A DNA stretch of 60,027 nt, filler included. It is 4 parts of 4 records of this genome, joined end to end, with 100 filler letters (N's around TTAATTAATTAA, not from the genome) between each part and the next. Parts side by side here need not be neighbours in the genome. Positions count along the whole stretch, not along the records: positions 1 to 19,343 come from SRR31156797_6619; 3 more parts are not named here. One strand, 5' to 3'. The notes beneath the pieces are model-generated. The model saw only the letters and a list, made by a program, of their open reading frames with translations. It was not told the origin of the DNA and did not search any database. This document shows, piece after piece, positions 223 through 19,343 of this stretch (positions are counted from its first letter, which is position 1; each line of letters begins with the position of its first letter). The position numbers were made by a program, and so were the translations under genes.

Positions 223-229
223 GGAAATA

Positions 230-2387: not shown

Positions 2388-2852
2388 TTATTTGCGCTGT
2401 GCTTTTACGTCATCGATTGTTACGTAGCCTGCATCGTTCCCCCAGCTGTTCAGTACGTAGTTCACTACATCACGAACTTCTTCATCTGTCAATTCAACCA
2501 CAGTCATAATTCCACCGGGATAGGTCGTGCCATTTACTGTAATGGGTTCCTTTGACCCGTACATGGTTTGCCTGATCGCCCTGTCTTTATCTTCCAACAG
2601 GTAATCAGCACCTGCAAGTGGTGGAAATGATGGTGGCAAACCCTGACCTGTAACCTGATGGCAAACAAAGCAGGTGCCTTTTCCCTCATAAATTGCTTTA
2701 CCAGCTGCCATACTGGCTTCTGCATCAAAATCTTCCAGTACAAATTCTGTATTTACAGCCGAATTGTCATCCATTGAGGTAAATGATGACATAGAAACGA
2801 ATAAAGAGGTTGCAAAAAATACTGCAACCAAGGTGATAATTGTTTTTCTCAT
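2388..2852 (-). CDS. exported monohaem cytochrome c
   Basis: signal-like N-terminus MRKTIITLVAVFF, CFVCH haem motif, FPPLAGADYL; start moved to the MRKT ATG to avoid overlap with the upstream gene. Confidence 0.88.
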   Translation of the reverse strand: MRKTIITLVAVFFATSLFVSMSSFTSMDDNSAVNTEFVLEDFDAEASMAAGKAIYEGKGTCFVCHQVTGQGLPPSFPPLAGADYLLEDKDRAIRQTMYGSKEPITVNGTTYPGGIMTVVELTDEEVRDVVNYVLNSWGNDAGYVTIDDVKAQRK

Positions 2853-2887
2853 TTTTGATCGTATTAAAAAATTAAACATTTGATTAA

Positions 2888-3610: not shown

Positions 3611-3632
3611 GAATCAGTGTTTACCTTATGTT

Positions 3633-4082
3633 CTATTTTTCGATATAGATCTCCTGCTCGGCGAAATAAAATGAACCCTTATGCGCCCAGTCCACTTTAA
3701 CAACATATTTTCCTTTATCCAAAGCACTATTGGGTATCCGTTGAAATCCCTCCGGATCAGGTTTTACCAGAATAAAAACATCTTTAACCCCGGACGACGG
3801 CCTGAACAATTGTATTTCTCCTGTTAAGCTATCGTAATTAAAAAGATCGGGGAATTTTATCTCAATCCAACCATTTTCGTTTTTAATGGTCAACCGCTCT
3901 TTTAACCCGAAAGCATTGTTCCGTTTTTCAATCATACTCTGGTGTGCCAACTCACGTGGATAATAATCCTCATGAACCAGGTTAATGCTGTTATTAAAAG
4001 CATAATATACCAGCGTTCCCATGGCCACCATAAAAAGGAATAATACCAACGCAATCCCTGTTCCCCAGTTAAATTTTATCAT
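3633..4082 (-). CDS. ccoH: FixH/CcoH family protein
   Basis: NWGTGI N-terminal TM, DYY..EL, LFRPS motifs; follows ccoG. Confidence 0.85.
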   Translation of the reverse strand: MIKFNWGTGIALVLFLFMVAMGTLVYYAFNNSINLVHEDYYPRELAHQSMIEKRNNAFGLKERLTIKNENGWIEIKFPDLFNYDSLTGEIQLFRPSSGVKDVFILVKPDPEGFQRIPNSALDKGKYVVKVDWAHKGSFYFAEQEIYIEK

Positions 4083-4094
4083 TAATAAATTGGT

Positions 4095-5498
4095 TTAGTT
4101 TGGTCCCACAAAGGTAACATCAATTTCCTCGATCAGTTCATCACCGCTGTATACACCAAGGGTAATGGGTATTTTATCCTGAACTTTATCCCGGTCGAGG
4201 TAAACGAAAAACACGCCTTCTGTTGATCTGGCACCTTTTACCACAAGATCACCAGCAGGAATTAATATTTTACCCTCATGCGACAGGAGTTTAATATCTA
4301 TGGTAAAATCCTCCCGCTTTTTATTCACCACCTTGATGTTGTAGAGGTTACTTATCTGGTTGTTATCCTGTTCCTGGTAGAGCATACCCGGAGTTCGCAG
4401 GATTGTGGTTTCCACATCAGGCCTGCTAAACAGAAGATAATTGAGAAATCCAAATAATACAACCAGTACCACGATGTAAGCGATAAGCCTGCCGTTAAGT
4501 TTCAGTTTTGATCCGGTGGAAATACTCCGCTCAGAATCAAAACGGATAAGGCCTTTGGGCAGGCCAACACGTTTCATGGTATTGTTGCAGGCATCAATAC
4601 AGGCAGTACAGTTTACACATTCCAACTGTGTTCCATTTCTAATATCAATAGCTGTAGGACACACCTGGATACATGCTTTACAATCCACACAATCACCTTT
4701 TCCTTCAGCTTTTCGGTCTTCACCTTTTTTATAGGGTGCGCGTTTTTCGCCCCTGTTATAATCATAGGCCACAACGATGCTGTTCTTATCAAGCAACACG
4801 CCCTGGAGTCTGCCATAAGGGCAGAGAATAACACAAACCTGTTCCCGGAACCAACTGTAAATAAACAGCAAAAAACCTGTTAAAATAGTTAATGCAATCA
4901 ATGCTGCACTGTTTTCAGCAAATGGCTGACCAAGCAGGTCGATCAGATTATCCAGGCCAATAACCCAGGCAAATAAGGTAAGTGCGATCAGATGAGCAAT
5001 GGCTATAAAAATGATGTATTTCAAAAGCCGTTTCCAAAACTTTTGGAATGTCATGGGGCCTTTGGCTAGCTTACGCTGTTTAGCTCCGTCTCCATCAATC
5101 CAAAATTCTATTTTACGAAATACCATCTCAAGGAATATGGTTTGGGGACATGCCCAACCACACCAAAAACGGCCCAACGCTACCGTGAATACCACGATAA
5201 AAACAATGAGGGTAAGCATCATCACAGCAAAAATGTAGGTATCCTGGGGCCAGAAAATCTGGCCGAAAATGATGAATTTCCGGTGTATCACATCAATTAA
5301 AAATAATGGTTCACCGTTCATTTTCAGGAAAGGCATCCCAAAAAAGAAAATCAATAATATCCAGGAAACCATTAACCTGTAGTTGTGTAACTTGCCTTTT
5401 GGCCTTTTGGGATAAACATATTCACGATTACCATCCTGGTTTATCGTTGCAATACTGTCCCTGAATGATTCATCTGATTTTGGCCCGGATTCAGTCAT
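4095..5498 (-). CDS. ccoG: cbb3 oxidase accessory ferredoxin-like protein CcoG
   Basis: GRFWCGWACPQT, CPYGRLQ, CVDCKACIQVCP and ECVNCTACIDAC motifs. Confidence 0.96.
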   Translation of the reverse strand: MTESGPKSDESFRDSIATINQDGNREYVYPKRPKGKLHNYRLMVSWILLIFFFGMPFLKMNGEPLFLIDVIHRKFIIFGQIFWPQDTYIFAVMMLTLIVFIVVFTVALGRFWCGWACPQTIFLEMVFRKIEFWIDGDGAKQRKLAKGPMTFQKFWKRLLKYIIFIAIAHLIALTLFAWVIGLDNLIDLLGQPFAENSAALIALTILTGFLLFIYSWFREQVCVILCPYGRLQGVLLDKNSIVVAYDYNRGEKRAPYKKGEDRKAEGKGDCVDCKACIQVCPTAIDIRNGTQLECVNCTACIDACNNTMKRVGLPKGLIRFDSERSISTGSKLKLNGRLIAYIVVLVVLFGFLNYLLFSRPDVETTILRTPGMLYQEQDNNQISNLYNIKVVNKKREDFTIDIKLLSHEGKILIPAGDLVVKGARSTEGVFFVYLDRDKVQDKIPITLGVYSGDELIEEIDVTFVGPN

Positions 5499-5539
5499 AG
5501 TTTTTTCTCAAGGTCATTGATTTCATTTTTTTTAAATAA

Positions 5540-5587
5540 CCAAACCCCGACAAATCACCTCATGCAATCAGCATTGTCAGGGTTTGG
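5540..5587 (-). terminator. intercistronic hairpin between ccoP and ccoG
   Basis: minus strand CCAAACCCTGACAA...TTGTCGGGGTTTGG, 14-bp stem with one G-U pair, followed by TTATTT. Confidence 0.5.
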
Positions 5588-5615
5588 ATTGTTACTGAAG
5601 CTTGCAAAACTGATC

Positions 5616-6209
5616 CTAATTAATTAATTCCCCCTGTGGATCTTTTTGATTTGGTGGGTTTGTCCCCACCAGGCTCAGCACATAACTCCCCACCTCTACT
5701 ATCTGTTCCTGTGTTAACTGATCCTTATAAGGTGTCATTCCTTTGGTTGGCACACCATTATAAATCACATTGTAAACATCTTCGATGGTATTTCCATGGA
5801 TGAAGTAATTATCCGTAAGGTTTGGACCAATGGCGTTACCCTCGCCTTGCATGCCATGGCATGTAACACAAAGTTTTTCTTTAAAAATTGCTTCCCCGGC
5901 CGCCAGATCTTCTTCTGATGTCAAAAGCACCATTTCGGTAGTTGAGGTTTCTGATTTATGTTTTTCAACGTTCACGCCGGCTTCTGCCATTTGCGCAGCA
6001 TATTCTTCGTCCTGGGTTAACCCAACATCATAAACATGATAATATACAAAGTAAATAACTGAAAAAACAACCGTGATGTACCAGATATACATCAGCCACG
6101 GCGGAATGGGATTGTTTAATTCTTTAATTCCGTCGAATTCGTAATCTAATGGCTTACCATCGTATTTTGGCTTATATGAGTTTTCTTCTTTATATGAATT
6201 TTCTTCCAT
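5616..6209 (-). CDS. ccoP: cbb3 oxidase subunit III, short monohaem CcoP
   Basis: FDGIKELNNPIPPW N-terminal motif, single CVTCH, IGPNLTD. Confidence 0.92.
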   Translation of the reverse strand: MEENSYKEENSYKPKYDGKPLDYEFDGIKELNNPIPPWLMYIWYITVVFSVIYFVYYHVYDVGLTQDEEYAAQMAEAGVNVEKHKSETSTTEMVLLTSEEDLAAGEAIFKEKLCVTCHGMQGEGNAIGPNLTDNYFIHGNTIEDVYNVIYNGVPTKGMTPYKDQLTQEQIVEVGSYVLSLVGTNPPNQKDPQGELIN

Positions 6210-6221
6210 GATCGGTAAAAA

Positions 6222-6422
6222 TTAATGGTTAATGTTTATTTCATCATTTTTTTCATCTTCATTACCCAGCGGACTATTGGCCATATCATCCACAAAACCT
6301 CTATCCAGGTGATAAACGTAATACAGCAATCCAAGGAAGAAGGTGAAGAATATAAAAATCCCAATAATGGGGAAGATAGCCACACCTTCGATGTTTTCCA
6401 GATAATGAATTACAATTCTCAT
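6222..6422 (-). CDS. ccoQ: cbb3 oxidase subunit CcoQ
   Basis: 66-aa single-TM protein between ccoNO and ccoP; ATG overlaps the ccoNO TGA. Confidence 0.85.
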   Translation of the reverse strand: MRIVIHYLENIEGVAIFPIIGIFIFFTFFLGLLYYVYHLDRGFVDDMANSPLGNEDEKNDEININH

Positions 6423-8929
6423 TTCATACTTATTTGAGTTTCATAAAGCTCACCCTGAGGTTCTTTGGCATTTTCAGGGTCAGTACCTTGCATGGTGATA
6501 ATGAAGCTGGTTAGCGCCACCATCTGTTCTTCGGAAAGTTGTCCTTTCCAGCTTTGCATACCTTTTAGCGGCATTCCAACTGATATGGTTTTGTAGATAT
6601 CTTCTGGTGAACCGCCTGTAAGCCAGTACTTATCAGTGAGGTTTGGGCCGATCTGGTTTCCTTCGCCCTGTTTACCATGGCACACCACACAATTTTTATC
6701 ATAAACCAGTTTGGCTTCGGCCAGTGCATTTCCGTCGGTAGGCAACGGGAGAGGCAAACCGGCATGGCCGTGGCCCGAATCGGCAGGTTCAGCGGTTTTT
6801 GGCATCTCCGAAATATCCCTGCCCAAACGTTGCATGTAAGCGATCAGAGCAATGATCTGTTTTTGCGGCTCAATCTCTATACCTGATTCGCCAAGGCCGT
6901 CGGCAATTTTCGTAGCCTGTTTCATCAGGTCATCATTGGCTTTTTCAGCATAGCCTTCAGGATAAGGTACACCCAGCGATTGCATTACCTCAATCTTCCT
7001 GGGTGTTGATTCCAGGTTAATGTCTTTTTTGAACAACCATGGATATGCTGGCATAATGGATTGTGCGTTCATCCCCTGTGGATTCAGCATGTGGTTATAG
7101 TGCCATGCATCCGGTTTGTACATTTTGCCGGAAACTACCCCTGCCCTGGCAAGGTCCGGCCCGGTTCTTCGAGAACCCCACAAGAATGGGTGGTCGTATA
7201 CAAACTCACCTGCCTTCGAATATTCACCATACCTTTCAGTTTCAGACCGGAAAGGACGAACCATTTGTGAGTGACACCCCACACATCCTTCCGAAATATA
7301 AACATCACGCCCCTGCAACTCAAGTGGCGTATAAGGTTTTACACTTTCGATGGTTGGAATATTCGACTTCACCAAATACATCGGAATGATTTCTACAGCA
7401 CCGCCTATCAAAATCGCGATCAATGCCCAAACTGTAAACTGAACCGGCTTTCTTTCGAGCCATGAATGAACGGCTTCGCCAAATACACGTTTCGAAGGTG
7501 TTTTTTCCAATGGAGGAGCTGAGGCTTCTTCATCGGCAACAAAGTTTCCACTTTTTACGGTTTTAATTAGATTGTAGATCATAATGAGAGCCCCTAGCAG
7601 ATAGAGAACACCACCAAATATCCTGGTGTAGTACATTGGCATGATCTGCGTTACCGTTTCAAGAAAGTTGGGATAAGCCAGGAAACCATCGGCTGTAAAC
7701 TCTTTCCACATCAAAGTTTGGGTGATCATAGCCCAATAAAGTGGAACGGCAATAAACAGGATACCCAGCGTTCCTAACCAAAAGTGAACATTTGCAAGTT
7801 TTTGTGAGAACAATTTTGTCTTGAATATTCTTGGGAACATCCAGTAAAAAATCCCGAATGTCAGGAAACCATTCCATGCCAAAACGCCAATATGCACATG
7901 AGCAATTGTCCAGTCGGTAAAGTGGCTGAAAGCATTAACGTTTTTCAATGAAAGTACGGGGCCCTCAAGTGTGGACATTCCGTATCCGGTTACAGCAACT
8001 ACCATAAACTTCAACAAAGCTGAGTCACGAACCTTATCCCAAACACTGCGTAAGGTAAGCAATCCGTTAACCATGCCGCCCCATGATGGTGCAATAAGCA
8101 TGATAGAAAAAATCACACCCATTGTTTGTGCCCAGTCGGGTAATGACTGATATAGCAAGTGGTGAGGGCCTGCCCAGATATAGAGGAAAATGAGCGACCA
8201 AAAGTGTAATACCGACAACCTGTAAGAATAAACCGGGCGATTAGCCGCCTTTGGCAGGAAATAATACATCAACCCCAGGTATGGAGTAGTCAGGAAAAAT
8301 GCCACCGCATTGTGGCCGTACCACCACTGAACGAGCGCATCCTGAACACCTGCAAATAGTGAGTAACTCTTCCACATGGAAACCGGAATCTCAAATGAAT
8401 TCACCACATGCAGCACAGCAACCGTAATAAATGTTGCGATATAAAACCATATAGCCACATACATGTGCTTAACCCGCCTAACCAGAATAGTTCCGATCAT
8501 ATTCCAGCCAAACACAACCCAAATAAGTGTGATGGCAATGTCGATGGGCCACTCAAGTTCGGCATATTCCTTCGATGTTGTGAATCCAAGAATTAAGGTG
8601 ACCGCTGCCGCAACAATAATCAACTGCCAGCCCCAGAAATGTATCCAACTCAAACGGTCGCTGAACATCCTGGTTTTTAACAACCTCTGCATTGAATAGT
8701 AAACACCGGTGAAAATGGCATTTCCTACAAAGGCAAAAATAGCAGCATTGGTGTGCAGCGGGCGCAATCGGCCAAATGAGGTATATTCAATACCAAAATT
8801 TAAGGCCGGAAAGGCCAACTGCAATGCAATCACCACGCCAACTAAAAACCCCACGATACCCCACAACAGTGTGGCGTAGGCGAAGTACTTTACAATTTTG
8901 TTGTCGTAAAAAAACTTTTCATGCTCCAT
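6419..8929 (-). CDS. ccoN: fused cbb3 oxidase CcoN-CcoO with an extra C-terminal CcoP-like cytochrome c domain
   Basis: GRLRPLHTN, QWWYGHNAV, WAGPHHL, HVH; CcoO part EGCVGCHSQMVRP and WGSRRTGPDL; third domain CVVCH..IGPNLTD. Confidence 0.96.
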   Translation of the reverse strand: MEHEKFFYDNKIVKYFAYATLLWGIVGFLVGVVIALQLAFPALNFGIEYTSFGRLRPLHTNAAIFAFVGNAIFTGVYYSMQRLLKTRMFSDRLSWIHFWGWQLIIVAAAVTLILGFTTSKEYAELEWPIDIAITLIWVVFGWNMIGTILVRRVKHMYVAIWFYIATFITVAVLHVVNSFEIPVSMWKSYSLFAGVQDALVQWWYGHNAVAFFLTTPYLGLMYYFLPKAANRPVYSYRLSVLHFWSLIFLYIWAGPHHLLYQSLPDWAQTMGVIFSIMLIAPSWGGMVNGLLTLRSVWDKVRDSALLKFMVVAVTGYGMSTLEGPVLSLKNVNAFSHFTDWTIAHVHIGVLAWNGFLTFGIFYWMFPRIFKTKLFSQKLANVHFWLGTLGILFIAVPLYWAMITQTLMWKEFTADGFLAYPNFLETVTQIMPMYYTRIFGGVLYLLGALIMIYNLIKTVKSGNFVADEEASAPPLEKTPSKRVFGEAVHSWLERKPVQFTVWALIAILIGGAVEIIPMYLVKSNIPTIESVKPYTPLELQGRDVYISEGCVGCHSQMVRPFRSETERYGEYSKAGEFVYDHPFLWGSRRTGPDLARAGVVSGKMYKPDAWHYNHMLNPQGMNAQSIMPAYPWLFKKDINLESTPRKIEVMQSLGVPYPEGYAEKANDDLMKQATKIADGLGESGIEIEPQKQIIALIAYMQRLGRDISEMPKTAEPADSGHGHAGLPLPLPTDGNALAEAKLVYDKNCVVCHGKQGEGNQIGPNLTDKYWLTGGSPEDIYKTISVGMPLKGMQSWKGQLSEEQMVALTSFIITMQGTDPENAKEPQGELYETQISMK

Positions 8930-8950
8930 TGTTAATCATTTTAATGAGAG

Positions 8951-9169
8951 TTATTCTTTGTTATCACTTGGTTCCTTTTTTTGGTTGGGTTTGTTATCGG
9001 TTTCTGGTGGGTGATCTTCTGATTCCGTTAATTCGTCATCGAAAAGCATCCGTACAGAAGGTGTGTAATCGTCATCAAATTGTCCGTCTTTGGTAGCCCA
9101 GAAAAAGGCAGTTAAAAATCCTGCAGCAAGGAACAGGCTTATAATGATGAGTACAAAGAGAATTGACAT
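8951..9169 (-). CDS. ccoS: cbb3 assembly protein CcoS
   Basis: TM followed by FFWA..GQFDD. Confidence 0.92.
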   Translation of the reverse strand: MSILFVLIIISLFLAAGFLTAFFWATKDGQFDDDYTPSVRMLFDDELTESEDHPPETDNKPNQKKEPSDNKE

Positions 9170-9202
9170 GAATTATATTTGAGTATCCGATTACCTAAAT
9201 GG

Positions 9203-9210
9203 CAAAAATA
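9203..9210 (-). promoter_or_regulatory. Bacteroidota -7 element upstream of ccoS
   Basis: TATTTTTG on the minus strand, 34 nt before the ccoS ATG. Confidence 0.5.
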
Positions 9211-9335
9211 TCACAAAAACAAAAGACTTACATATGAAAACAATCAAACGCGTTAATTTTTACTCTGTCTAAATAGGTGATAATTAATCAATGAATCTGA
9301 TAATCAATTGACCCGGCAGAACAGAAGTTTGGTTA

Positions 9336-11720
9336 TCACATTTTGAACCTGGCCGATAATCTGGTGCTGAAGGTAACAAAACTAACCACGGTTACGGAAC
9401 TAAGGGGCATCAAAATAGCAGCTATAATGGGTGATAATAAACCCTGAACAGCAAACGTGAGGCCAATTATATTGTACAATATGGAAATGCCGTAGCTGGC
9501 TTTTACAATACTCAATGATGATTTGGAAAACCTGATATATTCCCGCAATTTCGCAAACCTGCCTGCCTCCAGAATGGCATCACAGGCAGGTGAAAACTGG
9601 TACACATCATCAGCAATGGAAATACCCACATCGCTTTCGTTCAGCGCACCGGCATCATTGAGGCCATCACCGATCATTAAAACTTTTTTACCTTTTTCTT
9701 TCAGCGATTTAATATATTGTAGTTTATCCTGGGGTGACTGGTTGAAATGCAGATTAACATCGCTACCGAACATTTTGGTCAATCGTGTTTTTTCTGCTTC
9801 ATTATCTCCTGAAATCAAATGCAGCCCCATAGTTTGTTTTAAGAACCCAATGATCTCCTGCATCCCTTCACGGTATTTGCTTTTCACCTCAAAACAGGCT
9901 TTAAATTCCCCATCAATCGAAACATAAACCTCGGAGGCGAACACCTCATCCTGTTGATCACTTCCGGTAACAAAAGCAGAGGAACCCAGTTTTACATGCA
10001 ATCCGTCCACAATACCTTTAACGCCTGCAGAAGGAATCTCCATGTAATCCTGCACCTCATCGATGTGATCAACTTCCAAAAAATCGAAAACCGCCGCACT
10101 CAAAGTGTGGGCCGACTGCCGTGCAAGGGATTTAACAGCAATGACTTCATCAGCAGAAAGTGAACTCTCTTTGAGGGTGACTTCTTTGCTCCTGTTATAA
10201 GTTATGGTTCCAGTTTTATCAAAAACCACCGTATCTACTTTTGTCAACCGTTCAACCACGTCAGTATTTTTCAGATAGAACCCTTTGTGCCCCAGCAATC
10301 GCATGGCAGTTCCAAATGAAAATGGCATTGAAAGTGCGATAGCGCATGGACATGCCACGATTAACACGGAGGTAAAGGCAATTAAAGCGATTGATGGATC
10401 TCTAAAATACCAGTAAACAGCTGTACCTGCAGCGATCACCAAAACAGCAATAGTAAAGTTTTTACTCAGCCGGTCGATAAGCGAGGTCATATGCGATACC
10501 GACTTTTCCTTGTTGGTGTTTTGATTCCAAAGCTGCGTGAGCTGGCTTTGAGCTACATCACGCTTTACTTCAATTTCAATAGCCTGCCCGATTTGCTTGC
10601 CACCTGCAAAAACGAAATCCCCCTCATGTTTGGCAACCGGAATCGATTCACCAGAAACAAAAGAGTAATCGATATTCCCAAAGCCTTTGAGGATTTTCCC
10701 ATCTGTGGGGATTAATTCCTGGTTGCGAATTAAGATGCGGTCACCGGCTATAACATCTTTCAAGGGTGTACTCAACTCTCCGTTTGCCGTAATTTTTGTA
10801 ACGGCAACCGGAAAATAGGACTTGTAATCCCGGTCGAAGGACAGCGACTTATAGGTTTTATCCTGGTACCATTTACCAATCAAAAGGAAAAATATAAATC
10901 CGGCAAAAGAATCCAGGTAACCCGGCCCGGTGTTGCTGAATATCTCAAAATAACTTTGAGTTATCAATGCAAGAATACCAATGCTGATGGGCAGGTCGAT
11001 ATTAACAACATTGTGTTTCAGGTTTTTGAATGCAGACAAAAAATAATCGCGGCTGCTGAAAAACAAAACCGGCAAGGAGAGCACCACATTTATCAGGCTA
11101 AAAAACTCCTTGAAATCATCACCCAGTTCCTGCCTGAAATTCATGTATTCAGGAAAACTAAAAAGCATAATATTTCCGAATGCAAAACCTGCAACGCCAA
11201 TTTTTGCCAGCAGTGTTTTATTTGTGGCAGGCTTTTTTTTCCTACCAAGGCTGTCTAATGTTATCTGAGGAATGTAATGTATAGAGGCCAGTAATTCAAC
11301 CAGCTGACGCAAACTGAGTTCATTCGAATCAAAAGTTACAGATACCTCTTTTTTGGTGAAATTAACCAGCGAATTTTTTACGCCCGGGTGAAGGATGTGC
11401 AGGTTTTCAAGGAGCCAAATACAAGAGCTACAGTGTATGGATGGAATAAAAAGTGTTACCTTATTGACATTGCCCTCGGCAAAATCGAGCAGCTTTTCCC
11501 TGATCTCTTCATTGTCGAGATAAGCATATTTTGTTCCAAATTCCTGCTTATCCATGCGCACACCGGGTGTGTCGACAATGGTGTAATATTTATTGAGTTT
11601 CTTCTTGTTCAGGATTTGATACACCGACTTACAGCCATGACAGCAGAAGTTTTTCTCGTCCCACACCACCGGATACTTTCCGCAATCATCTCCACAGTGC
11701 ACACACTTTTCAGTTGACAT
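9336..11720 (-). CDS. ccoI: copper-translocating P1B ATPase CcoI/FixI
   Basis: CVHCG/FCCHGC N-terminus, HCSSC metal-binding domain, CPC, DKTGT, GDGLND. Confidence 0.95.
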   Translation of the reverse strand: MSTEKCVHCGDDCGKYPVVWDEKNFCCHGCKSVYQILNKKKLNKYYTIVDTPGVRMDKQEFGTKYAYLDNEEIREKLLDFAEGNVNKVTLFIPSIHCSSCIWLLENLHILHPGVKNSLVNFTKKEVSVTFDSNELSLRQLVELLASIHYIPQITLDSLGRKKKPATNKTLLAKIGVAGFAFGNIMLFSFPEYMNFRQELGDDFKEFFSLINVVLSLPVLFFSSRDYFLSAFKNLKHNVVNIDLPISIGILALITQSYFEIFSNTGPGYLDSFAGFIFFLLIGKWYQDKTYKSLSFDRDYKSYFPVAVTKITANGELSTPLKDVIAGDRILIRNQELIPTDGKILKGFGNIDYSFVSGESIPVAKHEGDFVFAGGKQIGQAIEIEVKRDVAQSQLTQLWNQNTNKEKSVSHMTSLIDRLSKNFTIAVLVIAAGTAVYWYFRDPSIALIAFTSVLIVACPCAIALSMPFSFGTAMRLLGHKGFYLKNTDVVERLTKVDTVVFDKTGTITYNRSKEVTLKESSLSADEVIAVKSLARQSAHTLSAAVFDFLEVDHIDEVQDYMEIPSAGVKGIVDGLHVKLGSSAFVTGSDQQDEVFASEVYVSIDGEFKACFEVKSKYREGMQEIIGFLKQTMGLHLISGDNEAEKTRLTKMFGSDVNLHFNQSPQDKLQYIKSLKEKGKKVLMIGDGLNDAGALNESDVGISIADDVYQFSPACDAILEAGRFAKLREYIRFSKSSLSIVKASYGISILYNIIGLTFAVQGLLSPIIAAILMPLSSVTVVSFVTFSTRLSARFKM

Positions 11721-11798
11721 CCATTAAAAATTTGTCTGCAAAGAAAACGAAAATCAAATTGTAAAACCTGCCTGATCCAAAATTCCATGTAGCAATTA

Positions 11799-11812
11799 TG
11801 AACATATGTTCA
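11799..11812. promoter_or_regulatory. perfect 14-bp palindrome in the divergent promoter region (candidate operator)
   Basis: TGAACATATGTTCA. Confidence 0.45.
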
Positions 11813-11843
11813 ATAAATCGGACGCAATCAATCACACATAAAA

Positions 11844-11857
11844 CTGATATTTATCAA
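11844..11857. promoter_or_regulatory. Crp/Fnr-type box
   Basis: CTGAT-ATTT-ATCAA, 9/10 match to TTGAT-N4-ATCAA, between the divergent cco and cyd operons. Confidence 0.55.
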
Positions 11858-12101
11858 CCATGACAATGTTATCAAACAGTACCAGCTAAAATGCCACAGT
11901 ACCCATAATTTTTAAAACAATCCAAATAAATACATAATATGCTGTTTATTAATATGTTTATCGAAATTAATTATATCGAATATTTTACATGTCAATAAAT
12001 TCAAGAGTTTCCAGCAAATTAACTGTGTATTTTTTTCTACATTTACAGGGTGAATAATCACAAATTATTTCAAAAACACAAGTACAAAAAAGTCACAGAT
12101 C

Positions 12102-12443
12102 ATGAAAAAACTCATTTACATTTTTTTAATTTTGATTGTCGCATATGCCTGTGGTTCGCAAGGCAACAATAACACAAATGAAACCAAAGCCCAGGTTGAA
12201 ACCATTGATCCTGCCAACCTCGAAACCATCGAAATTGCAGTTTATGGAATGACCTGTGGTGGCTGCGAAAAAACCGTACAAACTGCCGTAGGAAACCTGC
12301 CGGGCGTTCAGGAGGTTAAGGCGACTCACACTGACTCGGTGGCAGTGATAACATTCGATAAAACAAAATCAGGGTTTGAAAAAATGAAAGCCGCCATTGA
12401 AGGCAAAGGTTACGAGGCTACTGAATTTAAGGTAGTTGAATAG
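12102..12443 (+). CDS. HMA-domain (CopZ-like) lipoprotein
   Basis: lipobox AYAC, GMTCGGC metal-binding motif. Confidence 0.88.
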   Translation: MKKLIYIFLILIVAYACGSQGNNNTNETKAQVETIDPANLETIEIAVYGMTCGGCEKTVQTAVGNLPGVQEVKATHTDSVAVITFDKTKSGFEKMKAAIEGKGYEATEFKVVE

Positions 12444-12467
12444 TCATATTTAATCAAAACAAACAAA

Positions 12468-12923
12468 ATGAAAATGAAATACTTAGTGATGTTCCTGTTT
12501 GTAGTAGCCGTTTTTGTGGGCTGCAACCAAACTGTTGAAGAAGAAAAGGAGGTCATTAACAAAATCGAAAATGTGAAGGATGGCATGTTCATCCATGTAA
12601 CCAGCAATGATCCGCACCGGGTGCTGATGGCCATGAACATGGCTGATATGGTTTCTGAGGATCACGATGTGGTGATGTATTTTGATATTGATGGCGTAAA
12701 TGTGCTGGTCAAGAATGCCGAAAAACTGGAGTATGCCCACTTTCCTGATTCATTTACACTCATCAAAAAACTAAAAGATAAAGGCATCAAAATCATGGCA
12801 TGCCCGGGATGTTTAAAAGCTGCCGGTTATACTCCTGAAGATTTGATGGCAGGAATTGATGTTGCGGATAAGGAATCATTTTTCAACTTCACAAAAGGCC
12901 GGATTCTAACATTGGATTATTAG
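12468..12923 (+). CDS. DsrE/DsrF-like family lipoprotein
   Basis: lipobox FVGC; V.MYFDIDGV and IMACPGCL motifs. Confidence 0.75.
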   Translation: MKMKYLVMFLFVVAVFVGCNQTVEEEKEVINKIENVKDGMFIHVTSNDPHRVLMAMNMADMVSEDHDVVMYFDIDGVNVLVKNAEKLEYAHFPDSFTLIKKLKDKGIKIMACPGCLKAAGYTPEDLMAGIDVADKESFFNFTKGRILTLDY

Positions 12924-12931
12924 ACAAAACC

Positions 12932-13201
12932 ATGATTTCAGGAATACCGGAAAACAATTTGAGTCAGAAGAAAAACATATTCGCGAGGGTCTTCAATTTC
13001 TATTACAAAGGTTTCAAAACCATGACATGGGGCAGGCAGATATGGATTCTTATCCTTATTAAGCTTTTCATCATGTTTGCCGTTTTGAAACTTTTTTTCT
13101 TCCCGGATTTCCTGAAAACCAATTTCGAATCAGACCAGGAACGTAGTGATTATGTGCTGGAACAACTCACTTCAACACCAGCCGGTGATGAATCAGAATG
13201 A
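12932..13201 (+). CDS. DUF4492 family small membrane protein
   Basis: FYYKGFKTMTWGRQIWILILIKLFIMFAVLKLFFFP; precedes cydA as in Bacteroidota. Confidence 0.85.
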   Translation: MISGIPENNLSQKKNIFARVFNFYYKGFKTMTWGRQIWILILIKLFIMFAVLKLFFFPDFLKTNFESDQERSDYVLEQLTSTPAGDESE

Positions 13202-13250
13202 AAAAACAAAGATCTCTCAAAACAACAATTAATTACAAAATCAGATACGT

Positions 13251-14834
13251 ATGGAAAATTTCGACATGACGCTGATCGATTGGTCGCGGGGGCAATTTGC
13301 CTTAACTGCCATGTTCCACTGGATATTCGTCCCTCTCACGCTGGGATTGACTTTCATTGTGGCCATCATGGAATCGATCTATGTGAAAACCGGTGATGAA
13401 AAATGGAAAAAGATCACCAAATTCTGGGCAAAACTATTCGGCATCAACTTTGCCATTGGCGTTGCCACCGGAATTATTCTCGAATTTGAATTCGGCACAA
13501 ACTGGTCAAACTACTCCTGGTTTGTGGGCGACATATTTGGTGCACCACTCGCCATCGAAGGAATTATGGCCTTCTTCATGGAATCCACTTTTATTGCAGT
13601 GATGTTTTTTGGCTGGAATAAAGTGAGTAAAAAATTCCATCTCACCTCAACATGGCTGGTTGCCATCGGCGCAAACCTCTCGGCGCTGTGGATTCTTGTT
13701 GCCAATGCCTGGATGCAGGATCCGGTTGGAATGCAGTTTAACCCGGACACAGCCCGAAATGAAATGGTAAATTTCTGGGCCATATTGTTCTCGCCAACAG
13801 CCATCAACAAATTCCTGCATACTGTAGCATCAGGCTATGTGCTGTCGGCCGTCTTTGTGATCGGTATTGCTTCCTGGTTTTTGCTCAAAAAACGCGACAC
13901 GCTCTTTGCCAAAAAAAGCATTTTGGTAGCCTCAGTTTTCGGGCTGGTTACGGCCATTTTCCTGATCTGGACCGGTGACGAATCAGCGAGGCAGGTTGCC
14001 CGGGTTCAGCCTATGAAGTTTGCTTCGATGGAAGGCATGTGGGAGGGGCAAACCAACGCTCCGCTTGTGGCGGCTGGTTTCTTTGAACATCAAATCACGC
14101 CCACCGAAGAAAACAACTACAAGGAGAGGGATTTCCTCTTTAAAATTGAAGTACCCAACATGCTTTCGCTGATGGCGTTTCTGGATGCCAACGCCTACAT
14201 TCCGGGGATTAAAGACCTTGTAAACGGATACACCGATCCAAACTCCGGCGACAAGCATCTGTCCTATTTCGACAAGATCAAGCGCGGCCGCGAAGCCATT
14301 ACCACACTTAAAAATTATAAGGAAGCAGTTGACAATAAAGATGAAGCTGCCATTGCACTTAACAAAGCCAAATTTGAGGATAAAGAATGGATGGACAACA
14401 CATTCAGGTACTTTGGATTTGGATATTATAACCATGAAAATTTTTCCGGGCTCATCCCGAATGTACCGCTATCTTTTTACTCCTTCCACCTGATGGTTGC
14501 CCTTGGTGGCCATTTTCTGGCACTTTTTATCGTCATGCTGATCTTCTCACTTAAAAACAAGCTGCAAAAGATGAAATGGCTGCTCTATGTAGGCATCTGG
14601 ACCATTCCACTGGTTTACATTGCCAGCCAGGCAGGCTGGGTTTTGGCCGAACTGGGGCGTCAGCCATGGGTCATTCAGGATCTCATGCCCACCCTTGCAG
14701 CAGTTTCGCGCATTGATGCCACCAGTGTTCAAATCACTTTTTGGCTGTTTGCGGTAACCTTTACCACACTGCTGATTGCTGAAATCAAAATCATGCTTAC
14801 ACAAATTAAAAAAGGAATGACAGGAGGACACTAA
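13251..14834 (+). CDS. cydA: cytochrome bd ubiquinol oxidase subunit I
   Basis: SRGQFALTAMFH, GVATGI..EFEFGTNWS, QPMKFASMEG, ELGRQPW. Confidence 0.97.
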   Translation: MENFDMTLIDWSRGQFALTAMFHWIFVPLTLGLTFIVAIMESIYVKTGDEKWKKITKFWAKLFGINFAIGVATGIILEFEFGTNWSNYSWFVGDIFGAPLAIEGIMAFFMESTFIAVMFFGWNKVSKKFHLTSTWLVAIGANLSALWILVANAWMQDPVGMQFNPDTARNEMVNFWAILFSPTAINKFLHTVASGYVLSAVFVIGIASWFLLKKRDTLFAKKSILVASVFGLVTAIFLIWTGDESARQVARVQPMKFASMEGMWEGQTNAPLVAAGFFEHQITPTEENNYKERDFLFKIEVPNMLSLMAFLDANAYIPGIKDLVNGYTDPNSGDKHLSYFDKIKRGREAITTLKNYKEAVDNKDEAAIALNKAKFEDKEWMDNTFRYFGFGYYNHENFSGLIPNVPLSFYSFHLMVALGGHFLALFIVMLIFSLKNKLQKMKWLLYVGIWTIPLVYIASQAGWVLAELGRQPWVIQDLMPTLAAVSRIDATSVQITFWLFAVTFTTLLIAEIKIMLTQIKKGMTGGH

Positions 14835-14835
14835 T

Positions 14836-16017
14836 ATGTTTGAAACACTATCACATTTAGCATTGCAACAATACTGGTGGGTAATCGTATCGCTCCTCGC
14901 CAGCCTGCTGGTGTTCCTGTTTTTTGTGCAGGGCGGGCAGACCATGATCTACAGCCTTGGCAAAACGGATACCGAAAAGAAAATGATCGTTAACTCCCTT
15001 GGCAGAAAATGGGAATTCACCTTTACTACACTGGTAACTTTTGGCGGTGCGTTTTTTGCCAGCTTTCCGCTGTTCTATTCTACCAGTTTTGGTGGTGCCT
15101 ACTGGGTTTGGATGTTGATTCTTTTTGCATTTGTGATCCAGGCTGTAGCCTACGAATACCGGACAAAACCCAACAACTTTCTGGGCACCAAAACTTATGA
15201 GATATTCCTGATCATCAATGGTGCGGTGGGAACTATTTTAGTTGGCGCAGCAGTGGGAACATTCTTTAGCGGATCAGAATTCTCGGTAAACAAGCTCAAC
15301 CTGACCAATATTTTCGGAACCGGATCCACTACCATTTCGGCTTGGGAAGGGCCGGCTCACGGTCTGGAAGCAGCGCTGAACATTCAGAATTTATCCCTTG
15401 GACTGGCCATATTTTTCCTGGCCCGCATTCTTGGCATCCTCTATCTGAAGAATGATATCGATGATGACAACATTCAGTCGAGAATAAACAAGCAACTGAT
15501 ATACAATGCAGTGCCTTTCCTTGTATTCTTCCTCACATTTACAGGCATACTGCTTACACAAAGTGGATTTGCTGTGGTTCCGGAAACAGGAGTTGATCCG
15601 TTGTTGTGGAAAGTCCAGATGGAGCCGTACAAGTATTTGAATAACTTCCTTGCGATGCCGATCGTGTTGATCATGTTTCTACTGGGTGTTGTGATGGTAC
15701 TTTGGAGCATTTTCGGGACGCTTCTTGGCAAATGCACAAAAGGTATCTGGGCCGGAGGCCTCGGTACAGTGCTGGTAGTGATGTCGGTATTTTTGGTTGC
15801 GGGGTTCAACAACACAGCCTATTATCCGTCTACATTTGACCTGAACAGTTCGCTCACCATCATGAACAGCTCATCCAGCAAATTTACACTAACAGCCATG
15901 AGCTATGTTTCGTTGATGGTTCCTTTCGTTTTCGCATACATCATCTATGCCTGGAGGTCGATTAACAACAAACGCATTACTGCCGAAGAAATGCAGGAAG
16001 AAGGACATGCTTATTAA
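14836..16017 (+). CDS. cydB: cytochrome bd ubiquinol oxidase subunit II
   Basis: GRKWEFTFTTLVTFGGAFFASFP, SLTIMNSSSS; directly follows cydA. Confidence 0.95.
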   Translation: MFETLSHLALQQYWWVIVSLLASLLVFLFFVQGGQTMIYSLGKTDTEKKMIVNSLGRKWEFTFTTLVTFGGAFFASFPLFYSTSFGGAYWVWMLILFAFVIQAVAYEYRTKPNNFLGTKTYEIFLIINGAVGTILVGAAVGTFFSGSEFSVNKLNLTNIFGTGSTTISAWEGPAHGLEAALNIQNLSLGLAIFFLARILGILYLKNDIDDDNIQSRINKQLIYNAVPFLVFFLTFTGILLTQSGFAVVPETGVDPLLWKVQMEPYKYLNNFLAMPIVLIMFLLGVVMVLWSIFGTLLGKCTKGIWAGGLGTVLVVMSVFLVAGFNNTAYYPSTFDLNSSLTIMNSSSSKFTLTAMSYVSLMVPFVFAYIIYAWRSINNKRITAEEMQEEGHAY

Positions 16018-16052
16018 AAAACAGTAGTTAAAACCATAAAAAATTGAAGATT

Positions 16053-16175
16053 ATGTATTTAACACAAATCATATATTTCCTTACCTGGCCGGCTGTGATA
16101 CTGATCTCATGGTGGCTGGTTAATTACTACCTGAAAAAGCTGGATAATAAACTGGCTGAGGACGGAGAAGAGTAA
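16053..16175 (+). CDS. 40-aa single-TM protein, candidate small subunit of cytochrome bd (CydX/CydS-like)
   Basis: MYLTQIIYFLTWPAVILISWWLVNYYLKKLDNKLAEDGEE between cydB and the terminator; below the ORF-track cutoff. Confidence 0.7.
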   Translation: MYLTQIIYFLTWPAVILISWWLVNYYLKKLDNKLAEDGEE

Positions 16176-16195
16176 CCGGGAAAACTATCCTCACT

Positions 16196-16230
16196 AAAAC
16201 CGGCATTTGCTAATACATCTGCCGGTTTTT
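16196..16230 (+). terminator. intrinsic terminator of the cyd operon
   Basis: AAAACCGGCA...TGCCGGTTTTT stem with T tract. Confidence 0.75.
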
Positions 16231-16288
16231 AATTTGAACAATTGTCGAAAGCTTTTGGTTTTATGAAGGAATTCAAATCAACTAATTT

Positions 16289-17113
16289 ATGAAAACTCAT
16301 ACAATACTATTAGCGTTTTTCCTGGCAGCAAACCTGTCGTTCGGACAGGCTCTGCACAAGGAGCGAACAGCAGACTCACCATCCTCATCCTTTAAAAACA
16401 CAACAGAAATCAGCAATGTCGGCGATTTCACCGTGGTGGACTCGGACGGGATAACCTGGAATCTTTACACACTCCTCGAAGGAGGTACAACTATTATTCT
16501 GGACCTGTTCCAGAGTACGTGAGGCTCGTGCCAGGCATATGCTCCAATTTTAGAAGAAGTATATGTCAACTGGGGAGAAGGTAACGCGGATGTACAAATG
16601 ATCGGCCTCACACCTTACGATACCGATGAAGTAATTAATGAATACAAAGCCCAATTTGGGATAACCAATCCATGTGCAGGCCAGGAAGGCGGATCAGGTG
16701 ATGCTATTGCAACCATTATTGACGGGCAGCCATTTTTCGGGTACCCGACATATTGTGTGATTTGCCCGGATAAGAAGATGAATTTCAATGTGTGCTTCCC
16801 TCCTACTCCCGAATGTTTTGATGATTTCATTTTTGGATGCGGAGCTACATCAAATGAGGAGATTCAGGCCGATACGGAAGTTTCGATCTATCCCAATCCG
16901 GCCGGTAACCTGTTTACGTTGAGTCTTGGGAATGTTCAGCCAGATCGCGTTGAAATCATGGATATGCTGGGAAAAACAGTAAAAACCATCCGCACGGACG
17001 GGCTTAATCAGCACATGGCTATTGGGGTAAACGATCTGAAAAGCGGGTTGTATTTTATCCGGATTACCGACACCAGCGGTCAGATTATCACAAAAAAACT
17101 GACCATCAAATAA
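16289..17113 (+). CDS. candidate selenoprotein: signal peptide + TlpA/thioredoxin-like domain (UxxC) + T9SS type A sorting domain, 274 aa
   Basis: ORFs 16289-16522 and 16598-17113 are in one frame, interrupted only by TGA 16520-16522, giving DLFQST-U-GSCQAYAP; C-terminus SIYPNP...LKSGLYFIRI...TKKLTIK. Confidence 0.82.
16534..16567 (+). promoter_or_regulatory. candidate SECIS-like hairpin
   Basis: GGCATATGCT/AGTATATGTC 10-bp stem (2 G-U pairs), 14-nt loop, starting 11 nt after the UGA. Confidence 0.45.
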
Positions 17114-17136
17114 AATTCATTTCAAATTCAACCCGG

Positions 17137-17172
17137 AAAGCATCATCCTCTGGACAGGGTGATGCTTTTTTT
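17137..17172 (+). terminator. intrinsic terminator
   Basis: AAAGCATCATCCT...AGGGTGATGCTTTTTTT. Confidence 0.8.
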
Positions 17173-17218
17173 GTTTTTATAAAATCGTGATATCCGGCAA
17201 ACTTTTAAAGCCAGCTGC

Positions 17219-17347
17219 CTACAATTTCCTGACTTTTACACTACCTGCCTTTTTGCCGTTCACCTGCACCGAAATAATATAGTACCCGGATGGCAGGTTG
17301 TTTCCATCGTTATTCTTTCCATTCCAGGTAAAATCGAAAGTGCCGGT
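17219..17347 (-). pseudogene. 3' remnant of a FlgD-Ig/T9SS-CTD-type gene
   Basis: minus frame reads TGTFDFTWNGKNNDGNNLPSGYYIISVQVNGKKAGSVKVRKL*; no 5' part. Confidence 0.6.
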
Positions 17348-17707
17348 ACAGCAGCCATGGGATTCCTGGGTGGCGGATTAACCGTTGAAAGAAGTTACTT
17401 TAAAAGCCCGGACGACTGGGACAACTACATCAAGGTTTCCGTGGTTGGAAATTCACCCATGCTGGCCTCGGTTAATATGATGCTTTACAACTCGATGTAC
17501 ATGAGCGCTGCAGGAAGTAAAACCATAAAAATTGGTAACCGTAAAGCAGTGCTAACAGATGAAGGAAACGGTAGCTATAAATTGCAACTACCCTTAACCA
17601 GTTCGTTGGTAACCGTTGATGGGTATGGGTTTCAATCCAGTGATCAGTTTTACAGCAAAGCCAAAAAAGTTCCATTTGAAGAAATTGCAAAAACGCTTGG
17701 AGAATAA
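17345..17707 (+). pseudogene. probable 5'-truncated hypothetical protein
   Basis: coding-like frame ..TAAMGFLGGGLTVERSYF..PFEEIAKTLGE* that begins where the opposite-strand remnant begins; no room for a promoter or N-terminus. Confidence 0.5.
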
Positions 17708-17730
17708 GAAAATCTAAATCCCATTAAAAT

Positions 17731-17767
17731 AAAAAGGTTTGTCGGCTTGCTGACAAGCCTTTTTTTT
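17731..17767 (+). terminator. intrinsic terminator
   Basis: AAAAAGGTTTGTCGG-CTTG-CTGACAAGCCTTTTTTTT. Confidence 0.75.
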
Positions 17768-17870
17768 GTTCCTGAAAATGCTGTCAACAGGCATGATTAT
17801 GAGGTTGTAATAATTTGAAAGTAACAATTTAATAAAAATTTCTTGGTCAGTAATTAAAAACAATTTTACT

Positions 17871-17890
17871 TTGACCGACCGTTCAATCAA
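17871..17890. promoter_or_regulatory. candidate TetR autoregulatory operator
   Basis: imperfect palindrome TTGACCGACCGTTCAATCAA (14/20 self-complementary) 12 nt upstream of the tetR ATG. Confidence 0.5.
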
Positions 17891-17902
17891 AAATATAATT
17901 AC

Positions 17903-18487
17903 ATGCCAAGAACACCTGAACAATATAAAGAGATCAGAGGAGAGCGCCGAAAGCTAATTATGGATAATGCCCTTGAATTATTTGCAGCAACCGGCTATCA
18001 CGGAACCTCCATTAACGAAATTGCCAAAAAAGCAGGCATCTCCAAAGGGTTACTCTACAACTATTTCAGCGGAAAAGAGCAACTTGTGGTGGAGATCATG
18101 AAAAACGGCTTCATGGAATTCATGGAACTTTTTGACCCCAATCATGACGGTGTAATCTCCAAAGCTGAAATGCGCAATGTGCTTACCGAGACTTTCAAAA
18201 TAGTAAAAGAAAAAGTGCATTTCTGGCAGCTTTACTTTGCTGTAATTACCCAACCCATTGTTAACAAGGTTGCTTTTGGGGAAATTATGGAAATTGCCAT
18301 GCCGGTTTTCGAAATGCTCACCAAATATTTTGAATCGGAAGGATACAAAAACCCGCTTGCTGAATCCCGGATTTTTGCCGCCATGATGGATGGGCTTACC
18401 CTCAACTATGTTTACGACACCGAAAATTTCCCGGTTGATGATGTGATTCAGCGGGTAATGGATATGTATAACCTCAACGAAAGTTAA
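17903..18487 (+). CDS. TetR/AcrR family regulator with an EF-hand-like loop
   Basis: ALELFAATGYHGTSINEIAKKAGISKGLLYNYF HTH; DPNHDGVISKAE at residues 78-89. Confidence 0.93.
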   Translation: MPRTPEQYKEIRGERRKLIMDNALELFAATGYHGTSINEIAKKAGISKGLLYNYFSGKEQLVVEIMKNGFMEFMELFDPNHDGVISKAEMRNVLTETFKIVKEKVHFWQLYFAVITQPIVNKVAFGEIMEIAMPVFEMLTKYFESEGYKNPLAESRIFAAMMDGLTLNYVYDTENFPVDDVIQRVMDMYNLNES

Positions 18488-18509
18488 CCACCAAAAACAA
18501 ATTTGAATA

Positions 18510-19253
18510 ATGAAAAAGATTGCAATAACATTTTTCGTATTTCTCTTTGCCCTGGCATCAACAGCTCAGGATGCAACGGACATCGTTAAAAAAGCCAATG
18601 ATCTTTCACTGGGTGTAACCAGCCAGGGAACCATGACCATGACCATTGAACGGCCAAAATGGACCCGCACCGTTACCATGAAATCCTGGTCGAAAGGCAC
18701 GGATTACTACCTGATCCTGATCACCGCCCCGGCCCGCGACAAAGGGCAGGTTTTCCTGAAACGCGACAAGGACATGTGGAACTGGATGCCCGCCATCAGC
18801 CGGATGATCAAACTACCACCATCAATGATGAGCCAGTCGTGGATGGGTTCCGACTTCACCAACGACGACCTCGTAAAGATGAATTCAATTGTAGAGGACT
18901 ATACCCATACACTTTTGGGTGAAGAGGAAATAAATGGCATGGACTGCTATAAAATTGAGCTGATGCCAAAAGAAAATGCCGCCGTGGTTTGGGGTAAGGT
19001 CATCATGTGGATCGAAAAGAATGAATATTTCCAGATGAAAGCTGAGTACTACGACGAGGACATGGACCTGGTGAACACCATGATTGCCAATGACATCACA
19101 CAGTTCAACGACCGGAAACTTCCTGCCCACATGGAGATGATCCCTGCTGACAAAGAGGGCCATAAAACTATTCTTGATATGAAAGACATGATCTTTAACA
19201 AGAATATTCCTGATAACTTTTTCTCTCAACAAAATATGAAAAGGGTGAAATAG
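18510..19253 (+). CDS. LolA-like outer-membrane lipoprotein-sorting protein
   Basis: signal peptide; PARDKG..FLK, SMMSQSWMGSDFTNDDL, NFFSQQNMK motifs. Confidence 0.85.
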   Translation: MKKIAITFFVFLFALASTAQDATDIVKKANDLSLGVTSQGTMTMTIERPKWTRTVTMKSWSKGTDYYLILITAPARDKGQVFLKRDKDMWNWMPAISRMIKLPPSMMSQSWMGSDFTNDDLVKMNSIVEDYTHTLLGEEEINGMDCYKIELMPKENAAVVWGKVIMWIEKNEYFQMKAEYYDEDMDLVNTMIANDITQFNDRKLPAHMEMIPADKEGHKTILDMKDMIFNKNIPDNFFSQQNMKRVK

Positions 19254-19313
19254 TGGAAAGTTTTGAGTGATGACTTGTGAGCTCGTCTCGCCGCATGGGG
19301 GATCAGAGTTAAA

Positions 19314-19343
19314 AATGACGAATTAGGAATGACGAATTAGGAA
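19314..19343. repeat. short tandem repeat at contig end
   Basis: (AATGACGAATTAGG)x2 + AA running into the N-gap. Confidence 0.7.

Follow-up and report, generated by a model that had tools for sequence, protein, structure and literature searches.

Does the TGA codon inside a Bacteroidota gene encode selenocysteine (Sec)? The gene lies at positions 16289-17113 (+ strand) of a stretch of 60,027 nucleotides, here called the window, which consists of parts of four records of one genome joined end to end with filler between them. Positions 1 to 19,343, including the gene, originate from SRR31156797_6619. The original prediction, made from the letters alone, had read the locus as a secreted thioredoxin-fold selenoprotein with a UxxC motif. 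The comparative analysis described here makes it very likely that the locus is a genuine selenoprotein gene. The product is a ResA/TlpA-like UxxC selenoprotein with a sorting tail for secretion by the type IX system (T9SS), a Cys-rich extension and an unusual loop in its selenocysteine insertion sequence (SECIS), and it belongs to a Sec-using lineage of Bacteroidota.

One reading frame with TGA or Cys at residue 78

On read-through translation, 16289-17113 was a single frame of 274 codons closed by a TAA stop at 17111-17113. Its sole internal stop was the TGA at 16520-16522, which is codon 78. The list of open reading frames (ORFs) held two same-frame entries for this region, 16289-16522 with 77 amino acids and 16598-17113 with 171 amino acids starting from Met104, and the proposal that both belong to one frame with a single TGA was confirmed. 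With codon 78 read through, the motif is DLFQST-U-GSCQ and the TGA takes the first position of UxxC. TGA is a normal stop in the window, as had been argued for this contig. It ended 11 of the 42 Pfam-supported ORFs, including ccoNO (6419-8929) and ccoI (9336-11720). The window yielded no further credible gene interrupted by TGA; 20 other candidate sites were located in frames that match no real gene.

Database searches yielded 81 homologues. A group of 34 comprised 167-197 amino acids and spanned just the C-terminal 61-71% of the query. About 30 were full length (255-306 amino acids) and held Cys at the equivalent column (DLFYTTC..CQ). Full-length homologues with Cys or TGA at this column are the basis for annotating 16289-17113 as one coding sequence of 274 codons plus TAA, read via one UGA (Sec78).

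Alternation of Cys and TGA at residue 78, originally proposed as a check, was evident in genomes and metagenomes. Species-representative genome loci held TGA at this column in 14 of 21 cases and TGC or TGT in the other seven. Among 34 metagenome loci, 12 showed TGA (11 plus the locus L039) and 22 showed TGC or TGT. Neither TAA nor TAG occurred at this column in any of the genome and metagenome loci. Five metagenome TGA loci duplicate the 66-nt stretch of another locus, three of them that of genome loci and two that of metagenome loci. The same TGA was present in 26 further loci. The N-terminal part upstream of the TGA was open and conserved in all 14 TGA-form genome loci, with the motif DFT(V/I)xDS(D/E)G. 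Within the family of the closest relative, that of genome G001, 18 of 23 genomes held a homologue and 27 of 28 matches contained exactly one TGA.

Several genomes of this family carried two copies, some of them in open frames of 427-721 amino acids (e.g. G001:C83:11880-12452 and G018:C102:959-1513). Truncated matching proteins with PKD or BACON domains ahead of the sorting tail were present in the database. These second copies and database proteins indicate that the selenoprotein module is found in several architectures. Two tandem gene copies were located on one metagenome contig (L039:3-1152), and the complete copy was a TGA form with the motif DLFFRD-U-MAC. The gene at L001:3001-3816 was nearly identical to the window gene in its redoxin part and much more diverged in its sorting domain (67% overall), which may reflect fast evolution or an exchange of the tail.

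Purifying selection acts on both sides of the TGA. The ratio of non-synonymous to synonymous substitution rates (dN/dS) was calculated for 22 distinct TGA forms with the Nei-Gojobori method (NG86) as a ratio of sums. The 33 codons that precede the TGA gave 0.14, with 109 of 231 pairs computable and the remainder saturated, and the 24 codons that follow it gave 0.28 (203 pairs). The median dS was 1.72 upstream and 0.96 downstream of the TGA, and the lower downstream value fits an RNA structure that constrains silent sites. A maximum-likelihood tree was calculated from 46 distinct sequences, with nine duplicates dropped and L039 excluded. Nearly all distinct Sec forms (21 of 22) fell into one deeply diverged clade (support 97/91), and a clade of five Cys forms was its sister. 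The remaining form, L018, stood apart on a long branch as a second Sec lineage, and two state changes suffice on the tree. A nonsense mutation would not have persisted through such deep divergence under purifying selection.

The codon is not an assembly slip. A Logan contig of the probable source run X1, an independent assembly of 5739 nt at depth 342, covered 15900-17400 without a single difference or gap. A metatranscriptome contig of 303 nt (X9) spanned 16444-16746 with 32 differences, none of them listed at 16520-16522; a relative keeps the TGA. As a sign of transcription, this contig is a weak hint at most because RNA libraries can contain DNA. Runs X2 and X3 contributed only short, diverged pieces.

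Hairpin downstream of the TGA and selenocysteine machinery

A SECIS-like hairpin was located at 16535-16566 (+), with the arms 16535-16543/16558-16566, the inner pair 16545/16556 and the 10-nt loop AAUUUUAGAA. It begins 12 nt 3' of the TGA in the TGA forms. These coordinates follow an RNAalifold consensus of 15 TGA forms, which gave one helix of 10 pairs comprising alignment columns 16-24/39-47 plus 26/37. Double (compensatory) changes were detected at four of the 10 consensus pairs. No consensus structure was obtained with RNAalifold for the equivalent stretch of seven Cys-form genes.

In 21 distinct TGA forms, 94.8% of 210 cells were paired compared with 89.0 ± 0.8% in shuffles, and 12 double-change cells were observed where 2.5 were expected; none of 500 shuffles reached either observed value, and both contrasts are inflated because the sequences are related and the structure was derived from those very sequences. 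Pairing fell to 12-60% when the partner was slid by 1-3 columns. The prediction of a hairpin just after the UGA was thereby supported, as was the covariation that it called for, and the tenth pair that it included, 16534/16567, can form in the window.

The TGA and Cys forms differed in the same positions. Over all pairs, 199 of 210 cells were paired in the TGA forms versus 116 of 240 in 24 distinct Cys forms. The arms encode AYA/VYV, so codon positions 1 and 2 pair by composition and the pairs between third positions are the informative ones. For the three pairs joining third codon positions, 58 of 63 cells were paired in the TGA forms versus 12 of 72 in the Cys forms. Single TGA sequences folded into the same hairpin, L018 formed a different hairpin at the same offset and Cys forms had none.

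Section 5 of PMC13188914 describes a model for bacterial SECIS elements (bSECIS), with a distance of 16-37 nt from the UGA to the apical loop, a minimum free energy of <= -7.5 kcal/mol, an apical loop of 3-9 nt and a G within the first two loop positions. The spacing of 21-23 nt and the consensus energy of -7.82 kcal/mol lay within these limits. The 66-nt stretch of the window folded at -15.8 kcal/mol. Judged by the same model, the loop is non-canonical and lacks an early G, as had been noted from the sequence. A subset of bSECIS elements fails the model according to this source.

Genes for Sec synthesis and insertion, which the original prediction had named as a check, were found in relatives' genomes carrying the TGA form. 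selA was over the cut-off in 14 of 14 TGA-form genomes and in one of seven Cys-form genomes (Fisher p 1.3e-4; the sequences being related, neither this value nor the shuffle counts are true probabilities). Among the TGA-form genomes tested, selB and selD were present in five of five each. A tRNA-Sec was located immediately upstream of selA in four of five, and ARAGORN reported tRNA-SeC(tca) in three of five selA loci. In the phylum background, selA was over the cut-off in two of 301 evenly sampled genomes, one of them G001, in line with the expectation that Sec use is rare in Bacteroidota. The family of G001 held selA in 21 of 23 genomes. The organism of L001 is close to that of the window (CydA 96% and CydB 94% identical) and has selA, selB and selD.

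Genomes G001-G005 each comprised an ordinary selD of about 345 amino acids plus a selD domain within an open frame of 737-749 amino acids, and in G325 selD was found only as the long form with 739 amino acids. These long frames suggest a fused SelD. A Sec-type formate dehydrogenase, sought for a comparison SECIS, was over the cut-off in none of five genomes, and no match had an internal TGA. One in-frame TGA each was detected in a SprA-like fragment (G004:C93:20491-21693) and in a GTPase-like match (G001:C743:1976-2320); these may be Sec genes, broken genes or chance occurrences.

Predicted fold, sorting signals and competing explanations

The thioredoxin fold was supported by profile searches and structure prediction. 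A family profile matched ResA 4nmu in the PDB with an E value of 5e-10, and the Sec column was aligned with the first Cys of CxxC. An AlphaFold2 model calculated from a 35-row alignment had a mean predicted local distance difference test (pLDDT) score of 84.1 and a predicted template modelling (pTM) score of 0.61, with pLDDT values of 89-97 over most of the redoxin domain. In this model, U78 immediately precedes helix 79-95, which puts the motif at the N-terminus of helix α1, and the C-terminal domain adopts an all-beta fold. The profile alignment and the helix start agree with the claim that the UGA at 16520-16522, read as Sec78, takes the place of the nucleophilic Cys in a thioredoxin-type CxxC. 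The putative resolving residue of UxxC is Cys81 (TGC, 16529-16531), a near-invariant column that matches the second Cys of the ResA motif. The top Foldseek match was ResA 1su9_B with an E value of 2.4e-8, a template modelling (TM) score of 0.81 on the target and a root mean square deviation of 2.9 Å over 144 columns. The next matches were extracytoplasmic thiol-disulfide oxidoreductases, namely DsbE/DsbF, CcmG, the surface lipoprotein Etrx2 and Sco. Based on profile, model and Foldseek, the ResA/TlpA-like domain with its Cys-rich C-terminal extension was assigned to about residues 44-190 (16418-16858).

The window protein, P0001, remained below the Pfam cut-offs for AhpC-TSA (19.9 vs 26 bits), Thioredoxin_8 (18.9 vs 27 bits) and Redoxin (17.3 vs 26.6 bits). 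Thioredoxin-fold cut-offs of Pfam were passed by the family members P0072 and P0079 and by the paralogue P0085, and P0029 had no match. The subfamily is divergent, and its membership of the thioredoxin fold stands on predicted structure. Pro153 of the YPT motif (CCG, 16745-16747) was invariant. It aligned with TP of P0085, for which the alignment counterpart in ResA 4nmu and in 2lja is the cis-Pro stretch, and its assignment to the cis-proline position of the fold is consistent with this. Six extra Cys residues (129, 156, 159, 169, 176 and 184) were conserved in the TGA subfamily, in keeping with the several noted at the outset, and probably form structural disulfides.

The predicted type A T9SS C-terminal sorting domain (CTD) was recovered at residues 200-273 (16886-17107). 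PF18962 (Por_Secre_tail) matched these residues with an E value of 6.6e-15 and 55.6 bits (cut-off 27), and TIGR04183 matched with 52.8 bits (cut-off 23, E 3e-14). The family profile also matched the solved CTD chains 8glk_D and 8glj_D in this region. A signal peptide MKTHTILLAFFLAANLSFGQ was predicted by eye for residues 1-20 (16289-16348). Viewed in the same way, the N-termini of the 14 TGA-form genome loci consisted of a basic start, a hydrophobic core and a small residue followed by Q. From the sequence, a signal peptidase I site is probable before Q20, a placement that follows the Q rule. The T9SS translocon gene sprA was over the cut-off in five of five relatives' genomes tested. Selenoprotein-specific models of NCBIfam were not among the nine families with E <= 0.1.

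We infer the actual insertion of selenium, the export, the substrate and the electron source. On the comparative evidence, SelB with Sec-tRNA(Sec) would bind the hairpin 16535-16566 when the ribosome reaches UGA78 and would insert selenocysteine there. The sorting signals suggest that the signal peptide takes the protein across the inner membrane via the general secretory (Sec) translocon and that the type A CTD then directs type IX secretion to the cell surface or the medium. Fold and motif point to a U78 selenolate at the N-terminus of helix α1, which may attack a substrate disulfide, sulfenic acid or peroxide. Cys81 would resolve the adduct and an intramolecular selenenylsulfide would be formed.

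Several observations weigh against a selenoprotein gene. Part of the stem pairing is dictated by the encoded residues (AYA versus VYV), and the sequences compared are related. The hairpin departs from two of the four bSECIS criteria: its loop measures 10 nt, or 14 nt if the inner C-G pair is left open, and has no early G. An Rfam scan gave no match to a SECIS family; the single match, SAM-SAH with an E value of 7.8, was due to chance. The stability was unremarkable: the z score was -1.24 for the window, and four relatives sharing this hairpin ranged from -0.66 to -3.15. The window contained no tRNA gene, nor any sel gene among the 50 ORFs scanned, and the Sec machinery of the source organism is deduced from relatives' genomes. 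Of the 14 TGA-form genomes, 11 belong to one family. The draft assembly G332 held the TGA form and selD without a match for selA or selB, which one missing contig would explain since both genes are adjacent in relatives. X1 may be the source sample itself, and the evidence from it consists of assembled contigs.

The strongest of the competing explanations, although unlikely, is a periplasmic selenoprotein like ResA, TlpA or CcmG that helps to mature the neighbouring cbb3 or bd oxidases. It would receive electrons from a CcdA/DsbD-type membrane protein, and the CTD would not deliver it to the surface or would do so only after it has acted. The best structural relatives, ResA, CcmG and also Sco, are cytochrome-maturation reductases. 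A DsbD_2 protein (2888-3610) is encoded inside the cbb3 cluster of the window, and cydAB lies directly upstream of the gene. The main argument is the recycling partner of an extracellular enzyme, as a periplasmic site would supply the electron donor. However, the sorting domain was well over the cut-offs and is retained across the family, and the linkage with oxidases is confined to the closest subclade. Moreover, a reductase of this kind is not needed by cytochrome bd, which contains neither c-type haem nor a Cu_A centre. Very improbable is a read-through of the UGA without selenium, in which a suppressor or near-cognate tRNA inserts Cys, Trp or another residue and the hairpin merely promotes the process. 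The absence of the G of the usual SelB-binding motif from the loop would fit this, and selenium insertion itself is a prediction from sequence. The co-occurrence of the TGA form with selA in 14 of 14 genomes, compared with two of 301 in the phylum, argues for selenium instead. The codon also falls on the column of the catalytic Cys in a redox motif, a typical place for Sec, and TGA ends 11 of 42 genes in the window.

Still less probable is that the TGA simply terminates a broken gene, either a pseudogene with a nonsense mutation or an artefact of sequencing or assembly. It would account for the split by gene callers and for the annotation of public copies as truncated hypothetical proteins. 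It is already contradicted by the recurrence of the TGA in 26 further loci, by dN/dS values well below 1 on both sides, by the deep divergence of the Sec clade and by the second assembly, which showed no difference at depth 342. We give the least credence to a locus with two products, in which a secreted peptide of 77 residues and a protein of 171 residues from Met104 would be made separately. Both ORFs are open and the second starts with ATG, but protein-level conservation extends over the 25 codons that separate the TGA from Met104. The split would cut the thioredoxin fold at the active site, and a product from Met104 would lack the signal peptide, which would render its sorting domain useless.

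Starting from a genuine selenoprotein gene, a wider interpretation can be offered tentatively, and we regard it as possible but rather doubtful. Lentimicrobiaceae-type Bacteroidota may deploy selenoenzymes beyond the outer membrane, where they would form a surface redox system based on selenium. Up to three paralogous UxxC redoxins with T9SS sorting would be encoded in each genome, acting for example as thiol peroxidase or disulfide reductase and recycled by environmental sulfide or thiols. Sec might protect these enzymes from irreversible over-oxidation when anaerobes meet oxygen. Decoding would depend on a class of SECIS whose 10-nt loop lacks an early G, and this would imply a mode of SelB recognition unlike the textbook one. 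The protein would also be the first selenoprotein shown to take the type IX route.

The finding links selenium use with type IX protein export. It marks a Sec-using lineage, with selA in 21 of 23 genomes, in a phylum in which this trait is rare (two of 301). In public databases, the copies are entered as truncated proteins of about 170 residues that are unnamed or termed hypothetical, and with this truncated annotation a whole family of active-site selenoproteins is invisible to standard annotation.

Genomic neighbourhood

The gene order in the window was the cbb3 oxidase cluster, ccoI, an HMA protein, a DsrE-like protein, cydA, cydB, a 43-codon ORF and the selenoprotein gene. Linkage with cydAB was limited to the window, L001, L002, L004 and five metagenome loci. 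In other lineages, the gene was divergent from ApbE (L005, L007 and L008) or from lipA-lipB (L011, L012, L016, L017 and L020). Since the linkage differs between lineages, the neighbourhood gives no consistent functional clue and carries little functional weight. Of the proposed surface-exposed seleno-oxidoreductase beside two oxidases, the sorting domain stood, with the surface location deduced from it, and the association with oxidases proved to be lineage-specific.

The promoter motif TAnnTTTG was absent between 16176 and 16288 and was not enriched in the window, with 45 sites found and 48.8 expected. A sigma-70 scan gave only one site, within the 3' end of the gene. The terminator scan gave no call for a hairpin after the small ORF, at about 16198-16232. 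Downstream of the gene, a consensus scan placed a terminator-like hairpin of 15 pairs followed by a T run at 17135-17170 (+).

The 43-codon hydrophobic ORF directly 3' of cydB (16044-16175, +) showed 73-91% identity in the cydAB-linked relatives and is probably a small cytochrome bd subunit. The small HMA-domain protein and the DsrE-like protein between ccoI and cydA are encoded at 12102-12923 (+). DsrE-like proteins are a listed selenoprotein family; the DsrE-like gene of the window had no in-frame TGA. On the minus strand, an ORF for a phosphonate-binding protein at 33270-33812 covered profile positions 7-135 of 242 and ended in TGA, and the next ORF on the same strand, 32978-33283, used a different frame; the gene may be frameshifted or broken. 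Genome G004, which carries locus L007 and is titled 'Clostridia bacterium', has sprA, genes with T9SS tails and the TGA form, and was placed in the family of G001. Its Clostridia label looks wrong.

Comparison with known systems

Thioredoxin-fold selenoproteins with UxxC are the commonest kind of predicted bacterial selenoprotein. The reviews PMC13188914 and PMC9312934 list a 'thiol-disulfide isomerase-like protein' (TlpA-like cd02966 / Thioredoxin_8), a 'Prx-like thiol:disulfide oxidoreductase' (PF00578) and a 'redoxin family protein'. These UxxC families were first reported from the Sargasso Sea (PMC1088965) and from the Global Ocean Sampling (PMC2398784), and the latter paper also predicted that some putatively secreted proteases are selenoproteins. 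In neither PMC13188914 nor PMC9312934 does the main text contain the words secret*, signal peptide or Bacteroid*. The main texts of PMC13188914, PMC9312934, PMC12013277, PMC5029168 and PMC1088965 tie no selenoprotein to secretion, T9SS or a Bacteroidota lineage. No paper joining selenoproteins and T9SS was found; the supplements and two Haft surveys, which were outside the search, may catalogue the family.

With the listed UxxC selenoproteins, the window protein shares the thioredoxin/redoxin fold, Sec in place of the first Cys of CxxC, Cys homologues and a hairpin right after the UGA. Compared by description, it differs in its T9SS domain, predicted signal peptide, six extra Cys, affiliation to Bacteroidota and a loop outside the bSECIS model. 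The reductases ResA, TlpA and CcmG (PDB 1su9, 4nmu and 3k8n) were the best profile and structural matches and share the motif at the start of helix α1 and the cis-Pro position. They are Cys enzymes that are anchored in a membrane or located in the periplasm and draw electrons from CcdA/DsbD, whereas the window protein has Sec and a T9SS tail. HBP35 of Porphyromonas gingivalis also combines a thioredoxin-like motif with a sorting domain and is described in PMC2907840 as a surface T9SS cargo with thioredoxin activity in vitro. In contrast to the window protein, and again compared by description, it uses Cys, binds haemin and serves haem acquisition.

A further parallel in design is the paralogue P0085, encoded at L072:347-1138 (-), which corresponds to G005:C14 and shares its contig with L011 at a distance of about 175 kb. 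It is a T9SS-sorted redoxin with TGA at the same active-site column (FFSTA-U-GTCQ) and was the only TGA-containing match in an AhpC-TSA scan of eight genomes. It shared 29% identity with the window protein over 243 residues (E 2e-34). Unlike the latter, it has none of the six extra Cys and, with 43.8 bits for AhpC-TSA, scored over the Pfam cut-off. Its hairpin has the same offset and conforms to the bSECIS model, the loop AGAUUUGCA being 9 nt long with G as its second nucleotide. Genome G005, with L011 and the L072 paralogue, thus holds a natural pair of SECIS elements for the same SelB, one that fits the model and one that does not, and the specificity of SelB is directly testable with these two hairpins.

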